Virus record (IMG/VR): IMGVR_UViG_2778261504_000020
Strand: one strand, 5' to 3'
Source: a virus
Taxonomy: Duplodnaviria > Heunggongvirae > Uroviricota > Caudoviricetes
Length of the DNA stretch: 4,776 bases
The position numbers are program-made. This document shows, piece after piece, positions 1 to 4,776 of this stretch; within the stretch, counting starts at the first letter, position 1; every line of letters starts with the position of its first letter.

Positions 1-3000
1 TAAAAACGGTTCTGTGAAAGTGACACGAACCGATCTCCATCGATGTTACTCACCGATCTCCTTCACGGTAATACGCATGGGATATCCGGTGGCTAAGACA
101 TCGTGCGAGGAAATGACAATGGATTATTCACAGTTAAGTGATTTTGAAATTAACGTGGCGGTATTCGAAGCCATTCATAACGGATCGCCGGATTACAAAG
201 AAGGTGAGAATGGCGATATGGTGTTTGTCTCATTTGAGGGAGACATTGTAAACGGAGACGCAGTTGAAGTAGAAGTTGAGCGCGGATCCTTTAACCCATG
301 CGCAAACCCAGCAGACTCATGGCCGATTATTGAAAAATACAGGATTAGCATTATCAATCTCGATGAAGACGAGTGGGGTGCACGCGGTGTGGCCTACTGT
401 AAATCTAAGCGAGCTATACATGAAAATCCCCTTCGCGCCGCCATGATTGTCTTTCTCATGATGCAGAGAATCCAATAATGCTTAGCCCATCCCAATCCCT
501 TCAATACCAGAAAGAAAGCGTCGAGCGAGCTTTAACGTGCGCTAACTGCGGTCAGAAGCTGCATGTGCTGGAAGTTCACGTGTGTGAGCACTGCTGTGCA
601 GAACTGATGAGCGATCCGAATAGCTCAATGTACGAGGAAGAAGACGATGAGTGATTACCTGAAATGGTATCTCTGCCACCGCTGGCTAATTAAGTTTGCT
701 GTAAAAGACTGGATGACAGCGGATGCCAACAAACTTAAGCAAAGAAAGGACTATTACTACGCCAGAATGAAGGAAAACTACTGCTCAATTCGCACTCGCA
801 TATTTATTAAAAAAGACCTTCAGTCAATTCTTCAATTGCGAGGGAAGGTAAATGGCTAACCTACGCAAAGAAGCGCGCGGCAGAGAATGCCAGGTACGTA
901 TTTACGGCGTATGCAATGGCAATCCTGAAACTACAGTTCTGGCACATTACCGGATGGCTGGAATTTGTGGAACGGGGATGAAGCCTGACGACCTGATCGG
1001 CGCATGGGCTTGTAGTGACTGCCACGCGGAGATCGACCGACGCACAAGGATTCTCGACAACAAAGACGCCAGACTTTACCACCTCGAAGGCGTGATCAGG
1101 ACGCAGGCGATACTGCTGAAGGAGGGGAAGATTAAGTCATGAACGAATATCAGTTTGTGCTTCCATACCCGCCGTCGGTGAATACCTACTGGCGAAGACG
1201 GGGAAGCCAATACTACATCAGCGATAAAGGCCAGAAATACCGAAAAGACGTTCAGCAAATCATCCGCCAACTTAAGTTAGACATTTTCACCAAATCACGA
1301 CTCCGCATCAAAGTCATCGCAGACGCTCCAGACTCCCGCCGCCGCGACCTCGACAACATCCTGAAAGGTTTACTCGACTCACTTATCCACGCCGGATTTG
1401 CGGAAGACGACGAGCAATTCGATGACATTCGCGTAATTCGTGGTGTGAAAGTACCAGGCGGACGGCTTGGAATAAAAATCACCGAACTGGAGAACGCATG
1501 AACGCCACAATTCAAACGATACCAGAGCTTCTTATCCAGACACGAGGCAATCAGACCGAAGTGGCGAGGATGCTTTCCTGCGCAAGAGGAACAGTGCTCA
1601 AGTACAACCGAGACAGCAAAGGCGAGCGTCATGTAATAGTTAACGGCGTCCTGATGGTCAAACAGGGCAAGAGGGGAAGACGATGAGACTCGAAAGCGTA
1701 GCTAAATTTCATTCGCCAAAAAGCCCGATGATGAGCGACTCACTACTGGCCACAGTTTATTGGTTTTCGTAACTGAGTCATTTTATTATTTTATTGCAAC
1801 TTTTAATCTTTTATAGTGCGAAATAAATGGAGCTGGCATTCATTTCGCACTTTATGTTTTTGTTGGACTTATGTTATTTTGATTGAATTCAATTCAGTTA
1901 AAAAAAGAAGGTGATTGCTCCATTTATAAATGAATAGTCATCCCCTGTCTTGAATTCTGATGTTACTTTATTAAATGCTAGTGTGAAGGCTACAGGTGCA
2001 TACCCAATTGTTGCGCCAACTTGATATTCATCAACAGTTTTGTTTAGCGATACTGTTGTTTGTTTCGTCTGTATTGTTTTTCCTTCGAGAGTATAGTTGC
2101 GATTGACATCTCGTCTTTCCATACCTGCAAAAATCTTGTATTTGAATCCGCTTGTATCGGACATATGCATTAAACCACGGGGAGCCAGCAGACCAAAGCC
2201 ATTATCCGAATTGAAGGTTTTATCATTACCAATGGCAATGGTTGCGCCATATGCTACATATTGAAATAAGTTTCCAGTAACAGCAGAAACTTCAGGGTAT
2301 AATCCAACATTAGCACCTAAAATATCCATACTTGGTGTCATGGATAGCATCCCTTTTACAGTATAACCGTAGCGATTCTCTATTTGATCATCCCATGCAT
2401 GATATTTTTCTGCCCCAATAATCTCATGAGCTTTATTTTGTACTTTCTGACCGCCTGCGTCGGGGCCAACAACACCTATGTCAGTACCTAATCGATAGCG
2501 AATCCAGTCATTCGCAAGGGAGTTCCATTCAATACCAGTGTGAGTGTATGCACTAAAAGCTCTGTCTCCAGTTACAGCTGTGTTGTGTCTTTTATTACTG
2601 CCTGATGGAGAGTAAATATCTTGCGCAATATGGAGAGATAATTGGCTCGAGTCTGAGATATCGTGGCTATATCCCAGAAATAAGCCTTGTGAGTAATCAT
2701 CTCTGTTTTCATGTTTATTGCCATAAATATCATTAAGTATTGGTTGAAACTTCCCTGCATCATCATTTGCTAATGATAATGCAAGGCTGTTCGCGATAGC
2801 TGAACACGTGGTAAATGACAGAGCAATAAAGACGCCAGCGATGACACTTTTTTTCATATGTTATTGTCTTCCTTTTTTTTGAATGGTGCGCGTATTTTAC
2901 ATACATGAGTTTGTAATACAAGGTGCGTAATCAATATGATGTTTTATAATTGCGTGAGACAATTGATTTATTCGTTTTTTATTGCGGTTTTTATTATCTT

Positions 3001-4776
3001 TTAATGTAACGGTGTTTTTATTAAGTGTGTTTGCGTGGTGTTTTATGTTTTTTATAATTTTTTATTTTATTAAATTTAAAAGCATTAGTAATGGCTATTC
3101 TATATAGCAATATAAGAACTGTTACAAAAAAAGGGGGGCAATTACAGGTAGTTATGGATGATGAGTGAAACAGATATTGGAGAACCGGGGAATGAATGAT
3201 GTCTGAGTCTTATATATCAGAACTCCTTCGCTGTCGCTGGGGGCTCCTGTGCTTATGTCGTTTCCCCGATTCGGTTTTGAACGATTACCGAATGTTGAAG
3301 AATTATGCCAAAATATAGAAAGGATTTACTGCATGAATACCCAATATTTACAGTATGTTCGTGAGCAACTTATGGCAGCTACTGCTGACTTGAACGGAGC
3401 AACGAAAGGCCAGCTCGAAGCCTGGCAGGAGCATGCACAATTTGATACTGGTACATACAAACGAAAGAAGCCGCGCATTCTGGATGTGGTAACTGGCAAG
3501 ATGATTACGCTGGATAATACGCCGACTTCCGGTAAGCAGTCGTACGCAAAAGGTTCATCCATTGCTTTGGTCAGCCCGGTTGAATTCTCAACCTCTTCAT
3601 GGCGCCGCGCGGTTTTGTCTCTCGATGAACATCAGAAAGCATGGTTGCTTTGGTGTTACAGCGAAAGCGTTCGATGGGGGCATCAGGTCACCATAACGCA
3701 ATGGGCATGGAGCGAGTTTAAAGATTTGTTAAGTAACAGAAAAATTGCAGGTAAGACACTGGATCGCCTGAAGACGTTAATCTGGCTGGCTGCACAGGAT
3801 GTGAAGAGCGAACTTGCAGGGCGTGAGGCCTATGAATACCAGACACTGGCATCATTGGTGGGAGTGACAACAAAAAACTGGTCCGAGACATTTACTGAAC
3901 GCTGGGTTGCAATGAAGCACATTTTTCTACAGCTTGATAGTGATGCTTTATTGCTTGTGACGAGAACACGTTCAAAACAAAAGGCAGCATTTTTACAGCA
4001 AAATATTGCAAAACTGGATTAAAAGCCATATACTTCATGCAAATTTGGTATGTTGTAAAAAATGTATAAACCCGCTGCCGAGTGGGTTTTTTTTATGCCC
4101 TGAGTTGTACTTGTACGGTAAACATGCTGGCTGCTATGTAATAGAGTTTTTTTAGCCTGTAACCTCTTGACGGCATTGAATTGCTTTTGTTATGAGTTGT
4201 AAGCCAATGTTATCATCTTGTATTGGGGTGGTTATGAAGGATGGTGCGCTGCTCAGGAGTTCTTCACTTTTTATTGCCTACATGGGATGCCTTGGATGGG
4301 GGAGTGCTTATTTCTATGGATGGGGTACTTCTTTTTACTACGGCTTCCCATGGTGGATTGTAGGTGCAGGTGTTGATGATGTTGCCAGAAGTTTATTTTT
4401 TGCAGTTATCGTCATTGCTATATTTCTTATCGGTTGGGGTATTGGTGTTGTATTCTTTTTCGCAGTGAAAAGAAAACATTCTATGCAAGAGCTAAATGTA
4501 TTTCGCCTTTATTTTGCTGTGGAATTATTGTTTGTGCCGGCAATTATTGAGTTTTCTATATTGAGACAGAAGATTCAGGTACCTCTTTTGCTACTGTCAG
4601 CAGCGATTGCGCTGGCGGTTACAATTTCGATAAGATCTTATGGGCGATTTTTATCGGTATCATGCTTCTATGATAAGCCATTTATAAAAAAACATTTTTT
4701 TGAGATTGTGATGATTGCTTTTGTGGCATATTTTTGGCTTTTTTCATTTCTGACAGGATATTACAAACCACAGTTT

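Follow-up and report, generated by a model that had tools for sequence, protein, structure and literature searches.

The 4,776-nt stretch of DNA analysed here (the window; IMG/VR record IMGVR_UViG_2778261504_000020, Caudoviricetes) carries lpxR, the gene for a lipid A 3'-O-deacylase, together with a strongly AT-rich block on its upstream side. We consider it likely that this block, from 2858 to about 3181, is the native regulatory DNA of lpxR, that it travels with the gene on a leftward-oriented moron cassette of low guanine-plus-cytosine (GC) content, that it is silenced by H-NS and activated by Ler and Pch, and that a variable G-run within it is a neutral mutational hotspot. The anatomy of the region, its borders, its distribution and its polymorphism come from the present analysis, and its dependence on Ler and Pch from the literature. 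As a regulatory region it is ordinary and has been described before, its mutational hotspot being minor and possibly new; to this we add a corrected map (ylcG, the true start of Q and the borders of the cassette), the same module in phage 434 and a catalogue of tract alleles.

In the mechanism we propose, the lpxR cassette (1755-3181) is an insertion in the nin/Q region of a lambdoid prophage, flanked by a lambda-type Q stub on the left and a rusA stub on the right. Its upstream part contains a predicted short, unstructured, A-rich leader with a ribosome-binding site (RBS), one or two candidate sigma-70 promoters and about 200 bp of DNA with 24% GC. In a lysogen this AT-rich DNA would most likely be coated and silenced by H-NS; once the regulators of the enterocyte effacement locus (LEE), namely Pch and the H-NS paralogue Ler, had been made, they would de-silence lpxR, and lipid A 3'-O-deacylation would thereby be co-expressed with type III secretion. 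The genes ylcG and Q would belong to the rightward pR operon of the phage and be affected by the region weakly at most; the usual route to Q in lambdoid phages is transcription from pR across the nin region. The A7G6 tract at the cassette's far end would be a slipped-strand hotspot whose G-run drifts between six and eight among clones with probably little or no regulatory consequence.

The control region of lpxR is medically relevant, and its dependence on Ler and Pch has been published. LpxR, whose gene is regulated together with type III secretion, lowers the inflammatory potency of the lipid A of enterohaemorrhagic and enteropathogenic E. coli (EHEC and EPEC), and it has been put forward as a vaccine antigen (PMC6863877).

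The lpxR cassette and its borders

The genes and junctions on which this reading depends are as follows.

1683-1754, + strand: N-terminal stub of a lambda-type Q at the left cassette junction, annotated in RefSeq and in phage 434 as a partial antitermination protein
1898-2857, - strand: lpxR, lipid A 3'-O-deacylase, 319 aa (Pfam PF09982, E=6.8e-40)
3176-3198, + strand: right cassette junction, with the last ~20 nt of a rusA allele and the ylcG RBS GGGG at 3187-3190 (RBS as annotated in phage 434)
3196/3199-3318, + strand: ylcG, a small gene of 39-40 aa (NCBIfam NF033498, E=7.4e-13; RefSeq annotation)
3333-4022, + strand: Q antiterminator, Q82-like, start codon ATG 3333 (Pfam PF06323, E=1.1e-91)

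In lambdoid phages without lpxR, homology to the window covers ninH and codons 1-24 of a lambda-type Q and ends at about 1750-1755; in prophages of the rusA-ylcG-Q type it starts at about 3182. Judged by this stop and restart, 1755-3181 is an inserted cassette. In MRE162-type prophages rusA, ylcG and Q are contiguous, and at this position the window has the Q stub, lpxR and the AT-rich DNA inserted. The two flanks have GC contents of 48.3% and 45.7%; the cassette has 35.6% and the part of it upstream of lpxR 27.8%. The entire AT-rich block came with lpxR and not with Q. An extra gene between normally adjacent neighbours, with a composition distinct from its flanks, is what characterises a phage moron, and the likeness to the bor and lom morons of lambda extends to the opposite orientation, the lower GC content, an upstream region of its own and a flanking hairpin. 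The lpxR insertion differs from them in having broken one Q allele while lying upstream of another, and in being wired into a virulence regulon of the host. Bracketed as it is by two gene stubs, the cassette leaves the prophage with two Q sequences, a dead start upstream of lpxR and, downstream, a live gene of the Q82 type, a recombination scar that is common to phage 434. The rusA stub comes from an allele other than that of the intact rusA at 1139-1501. A direct repeat, GATGATGAG(C/T)GA, occurs at 1727 and 3157; since neither copy lies at a junction, we treat it as chance.

The preliminary description had placed a divergent control region, 2858-3248, directly between lpxR and Q. This geometry is inexact: ylcG intervenes, so that the last ~50 nt of that region are ylcG coding sequence, and the true lpxR-ylcG intergenic space is 2858-3195. 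The GTG at 3249, formerly taken as the start of Q, is an artefact of extending the open reading frame (ORF) and overlaps ylcG, whereas positions 1-216 of the Pfam Q model align to Q residues 4-219 and both RefSeq and the phage 434 record also start Q at ATG 3333. The LpxR protein in RefSeq (WP_000750155.1) is identical in every fetched genome annotated by the Prokaryotic Genome Annotation Pipeline, and the gene is annotated as lpxR/ECs_0814 in Sakai.

Distribution and relatives

The module is present in 620 of 5426 complete E. coli genomes, among them Sakai (prophage Sp3, ECs_0814), EDL933 and EPEC E2348/69. It is horizontally acquired, the cassette lying in a lambdoid prophage to which rusA-ylcG-Q prophages without the cassette are related. 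At the published lpxR locus (ECs0814/Z0955/E2348C_0684, in Sp3/CP-933K/PP2 of EHEC and EPEC) the intergenic DNA is about 99% identical to that of the window and has the same neighbours, namely the Q stub, ylcG and Q. Only the allele state sets the window apart from these loci, its G6 being a minority allele (91/620), while the nin genes to the left of the cassette differ from those of Sp3.

When other phages were considered, the AT-rich block was found only in phage 434 (OL657226, CPT_434_64 to CPT_434_67), which has the same architecture and is 99.1% identical over 2858-3195, G6 included; the occurrence of the module in this phage is an addition of the present analysis. Phage 434 is viable and bears the cassette, and its Q is therefore presumably expressed with the cassette in place. 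Its curated record marks no promoter in the region, and in the literature searched we found no regulatory study of its lpxR copy. The sole related locus outside E. coli that we retrieved was that of Citrobacter lpxR (73% amino acid identity), whose upstream DNA is not alignable with that of the window; the control DNA is therefore specific to the phage-borne cassette.

Regulation by Ler and Pch

Silencing by H-NS and counter-silencing by virulence regulators, which the preliminary description had suggested for the region, is essentially the published model for lpxR and is already known. Ler activates E2348C_0684 21-fold and 35-fold in EPEC and Z0955 5-fold in EHEC (PMC3891560). The same study records that ECs0814 had earlier been seen as Ler-regulated in Sakai, and that the locus, formerly named 'sfpA-like', is a documented member of the Ler regulon (PMC3891560). 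The need of lpxR for Pch as well as Ler is stated in PMC6393859 and PMC7649339, both citing Ogawa et al. (2018, Cell Microbiol 20:e12806). The gene has also been assigned to the LEE modulon (PMC9263587), its expression falls along with that of the LEE in yhaO/yhaJ mutants (PMC4699771), and it co-occurs with the LEE (PMC6724679). In the published supplements that we checked for direct binding of H-NS or Ler, ECs0814 does not appear.

The suggestion fits this DNA insofar as it is AT-rich, horizontally acquired and about 99% identical to published loci of the Ler/Pch regulon, and occupancy of this exact DNA by H-NS is what we infer from those properties. The region resembles LEE2/LEE3 and other promoters that are silenced by H-NS and de-silenced by Ler in consisting of AT-rich, horizontally acquired intergenic DNA at which Ler would counteract H-NS. 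At LEE2/LEE3, both divergent operons are strongly Ler-dependent, whereas here this is so of lpxR only (21-35-fold, against 2-fold for Q).

Composition, repeats and curvature of the AT-rich block

The AT-richness reported for about 390 bp upstream of lpxR was confirmed: GC content, which is 42.4% in the window as a whole, is 31.7% over 2858-3248, 29.0% over the intergenic space proper (338 bp, 2858-3195) and 23.9% over 2925-3125, and the GC minimum of the window is the 200-nt stretch at 2901-3100 (24.5%). E. coli averages about 51% GC, and a content so far below that of the host over several hundred bp is a mark of promoter regions under xenogeneic silencing. Two features of the block bear on its presumed role as a binding platform.

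2925-3125, no strand assigned: AT-rich core (23.9% GC, T-rich on the + strand) with GTTTTTATT-like repeats and moderate predicted curvature at ~2956-3085; presumed H-NS/Ler/Pch binding platform
2948-2967, + strand: two AATTG steps, at 2948 and 2961; AATTGAT at 2961-2967 is the core of LeeH (GCGATAATTGATAGG), a site for the C-terminal (CT) domain of Ler

The repeated GTTTTTATT-like motifs of the preliminary description hold up. Exact copies lie at 2987 and 3014 and one-mismatch copies at 2975 and 3058, all on the + strand; the whole window has nine matches where 2.8 are expected (none of 200 shuffles reaches nine), and against local composition there are four where 1.1 are expected (P ~0.015). 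Enrichment of AATTG is weak (P ~0.065). LeeH is a Ler-binding oligonucleotide (PMC3219716), and its AATTGAT core is present here as an identical copy.

The intrinsic curvature that had been proposed stands in part. According to two wedge models, the ratio of end-to-end to contour length falls to 0.85-0.87 at ~2956-3085 from a window mean of 0.95-0.96, a moderate bend that ranks second in the window after that at 3946-4065; but AA/TT periodicity at 10-11 bp gave no significant helical phasing of the A/T tracts.

The region is non-coding, given that the 41-aa ORF at 2982-3107 is frameshifted by natural T-run indels and that an Rfam scan at E<=1 gave no structured RNA match in 2858-3248. The same ORF, considered as a small protein, has no family match and was rejected. 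A long-range pairing of the T8 run with the A7G run (inverted repeat I10) was treated as chance. A PhoP-box-like direct repeat, TGTTTG-N5-TGTTTT, lies at 3028-3044 on the + strand, where it overlaps the -35 of the best + strand promoter candidate. It is the sole match in the window, and 2.9% of local dinucleotide shuffles contain at least one match; as it was found post hoc, it is a lead only; lpxR of Yersinia has been reported to be PhoPQ-regulated (PMC4651636).

The predicted lpxR leader and candidate promoters

Reading leftwards from the cassette edge towards lpxR, the candidate control elements on the lpxR strand are listed below, with position weight matrix (PWM) scores and predicted transcription start sites (TSS) where these apply.

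3097-3125, - strand: candidate distal lpxR promoter GTAACA-17-TAGAAT, TSS ~3090 (consensus scan and PWM; not above chance)
2894-2921, - strand: candidate proximal lpxR promoter TTGTAT-16-TAAAAT, TSS ~2887 (joint top minus-strand PWM score, 9.5; not above shuffles)
2858-2887, - strand: predicted short, unstructured lpxR leader, with RBS AGGA at 2870-2873 (phage 434 annotation) and a minimum free energy of 0 kcal/mol; its 5' end is placed from the candidate promoter only

The T8 run at 2873-2880 is A8 on the sense strand of lpxR and directly abuts the RBS AGGA. Candidate promoters had been proposed in both directions, and hexamer pairs do occur on both strands; they are, however, neither commoner nor better than in shuffled sequence, with seven pairs in the consensus scan of both strands against 8.1 expected and a best PWM score of 10.8 where shuffles average 10.75. 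The best + strand PWM candidate, TTGCGT-16-TATAAT at 3031-3058, has a perfect TATAAT. Because the candidates do not exceed shuffle expectation, we infer, and no more, the positions of promoters and start sites given above. Of the promoter and terminator that a moron might bring with it, a flanking hairpin is present and the promoter candidates are no better than chance; that lpxR is expressed in lysogens under the control of Ler is known from published work.

In Salmonella, lpxR is under MicF control (PMC4651636). We considered the same for the window and found it unsupported: after the MicF sequence had been verified in E. coli, the best seed duplex with lpxR -60..+200 came to -15.6 kcal/mol in a crude test, which is within shuffle expectation and not at the RBS.

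Homopolymer length variation

The homopolymers lie where the preliminary description had put them, T8 at 2873-2880 and A7G6 at 3126-3138 (A7 3126-3132, G6 3133-3138). Its proposal that they undergo slipped-strand variation applies to the G-run and to some T-runs, but not to T8 and A7, which are essentially invariant. The variable runs of the block are the following.

3126-3138, + strand: A7G6 tract; G-run hypervariable, A-run nearly fixed (A8 in O103:H2 12009)
3058-3063, + strand: T-run whose length depends on lineage; T4 in O157:H7, T5 in phage 434 and the non-O157 strains fetched, T6 in the window

Alleles were counted by exact match of 75-77-nt queries across the 620 genomes. The G-run is G6 in 91, G7 in 438 and G8 in 68 of them, and the other 23 have other changes, such as A8G7 in O103:H2 12009. 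When 15 copies were aligned, the run was found to differ inside otherwise identical haplotypes, being G6, G7 or G8 in O157:H7, G7 or G8 in O111:H8, and A7G6 or A8G7 in O103:H2. Clonal clusters share one allele (the PNUSAE O157:H7 set is all G8, and most O111:H8 genomes are alike), which shows that the alleles are heritable and not read errors; older references such as O111:H- 11128 also have G8. Of the 620 genomes, 614 share an identical 78-nt sequence around T8, a constancy that argues against assembly error. Over 3024-3125, none of 616 matching genomes is 100% identical to the window, most being 1 or 2 nt shorter.

The polymorphism of the G-run is real and, as far as the literature searched shows, undescribed, hence possibly new; it is most likely ordinary slippage at a G-run in non-coding DNA. 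Relative to the distal candidate promoter, the tract is placed immediately upstream of the -35, and the edge of the cassette is about 45 bp away. That a change in its length alters promoter spacing, as had been suggested, is not borne out, as no PWM candidate on either strand spans 3126-3138 and the tract lies in no plausible -35/-10 spacer; there may conceivably be an activator site beyond it. Other nearby runs of 6-8 nt vary, including the T8 of a terminator downstream of Q, and the constancy of the leader A8 (2873-2880) may for this reason reflect constraint.

That terminator T8 (4087-4094) is the tail of a terminator-like hairpin at 4068-4094, in the pR'/tR' region, and is T7 in Sakai and EDL933. 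In about half of the 620 genomes the tail has one base fewer.

Alternative explanations

Several results weigh against the reading of 2858 to ~3181 as H-NS-silenced, Ler/Pch-activated lpxR control DNA with a neutral G-run. The high-affinity H-NS 10-mer tCGATAAATT has no match at <=2 mismatches within 2858-3248; this nucleation motif is helpful for silencing and not obligatory. The promoter candidates are indistinguishable from chance in DNA of this composition. Three G-run alleles, with G7 the commonest, recur in clonal lineages, which fits selection as well as drift, and in late-log EPEC, though only in that growth phase, Ler raises Q (E2348C_0685) 2-fold, so that some rightward effect is possible (PMC3891560). 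This last result is the sole support for the rightward control that the preliminary description had proposed, to which the normal reading of Q from pR is opposed. Its fuller form, in which ylcG and Q are driven by a rightward promoter (TTGCGT-16-TATAAT at 3031-3058, for instance) that de-silencing by Ler and Pch switches on as well, would matter most in the cryptic Sp3/CP-933K, if these have no pR. At EDL933 (fetched locus 1-651) and Sakai (2355-4018) a truncated bet adjoins the nin genes, the annotation showing neither immunity nor replication genes in the interval, and Q is therefore probably without pR there; the perfect TATAAT of the best + strand candidate also speaks for such a promoter. 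Even so we regard it as unlikely: the effect on Q is just 2-fold against 21-35-fold for lpxR, no Q gene is among the four extra-LEE genes of the EHEC Ler data set (PMC3891560), the rightward promoter scores no better than shuffles, the curated annotation of phage 434 has no promoter here, and the AT-rich block is cassette DNA that arrived with lpxR and not with ylcG and Q. A different objection is that the AT-rich block beyond a short proximal promoter might have no function, being filler or a scar of recombination that the cassette has brought with it. It has no conserved counterpart upstream of Citrobacter lpxR, its copies are all ~99% identical, which makes conservation uninformative, and several T-runs inside it tolerate indels. 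But strong dependence on Ler generally needs extended AT-rich DNA for H-NS filaments and their displacement by Ler, as reported for Sakai loci, and the GTTTTTATT-type repeats exceed the expectation from local composition, and we find a block without function improbable.

We give equally little credence to the G-run as a contingency locus of the phase or rheostat kind, in which slippage between G6, G7 and G8 would heritably tune lpxR or ylcG-Q by shifting proteins bound upstream, in helical phase or distance, relative to the distal promoter. The frequencies of the three alleles, their changes inside otherwise identical haplotypes, their inheritance in clonal clusters, the constancy of the T8 control and the abutment of the tract on the -35 of the distal candidate all fit such a locus. 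Polymorphism among close isolates is indeed what a contingency tract should have, but such a tract would lie in a -35/-10 spacer, or between an activator site and the core promoter, for its length to set output; this one lies in no spacer, and only ~45 bp of cassette DNA extend beyond it. Runs of 6-8 are generally held to be short for classical phase variation in a mismatch-repair-proficient species, and the 8-nt run in the tR' tail also varies between T8 and T7 in roughly half of the genomes, so such indels are ordinary here. The poly-G/C tracts of Neisseria porA and opc and the TA repeats of Haemophilus hifA-hifB are similar in pairing a homopolymer near a promoter candidate with a divergent intergenic region and length polymorphism; the lpxR tract differs in being short (6-8), outside a spacer and in an organism proficient in mismatch repair. 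Were G-run alleles to change lpxR output, strain differences in immune evasion could be explained. That the run of six to eight is a selected rheostat, tuning lipid A deacylation when Ler is on or the Q output of a cryptic prophage, would imply clone-to-clone differences in TLR4 evasion, and we think it very improbable.

Other features of the window

A strong hairpin flanks the 3' side of lpxR within the cassette.

1815-1851, no strand assigned: inverted repeat I1 in the lpxR 3' flank, -16.0 kcal/mol on the + strand (z=-2.95) and -19.1 kcal/mol on the - strand (z=-7.6)

It has a U-rich tail on the + strand only, the tail on the lpxR strand being A-rich. Its structure resembles that of an intrinsic terminator that would stop rightward transcription from pR just before this ran antisense into lpxR.

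Two strains depart from the usual annotation to the right of the cassette. In O111:H8 strain 8E (fetched locus 604-675) ylcG is annotated at 72 nt, against 120-123 nt elsewhere, which suggests a difference in start site or a frameshift. The most divergent intergenic haplotype, with several single-nucleotide polymorphisms as well as three T-run deletions, is that of strain 2012C-4227, whose Q, containing an internal stop, is annotated as a pseudogene.

Around the terminator downstream of Q, 4029-4098 gave the only match of the Rfam scan, a sub-threshold one to STnc240 (28 bits against a gathering score of 55). Further downstream, at 4234-4776, a membrane-protein gene continues past the end of the window; a further insert of low GC content, situated between Q and the lysis genes, it is annotated in RefSeq and phage 434 as a 744-nt gene for a hypothetical or putative membrane protein, with a DUF3927/TciB gene next to it there.

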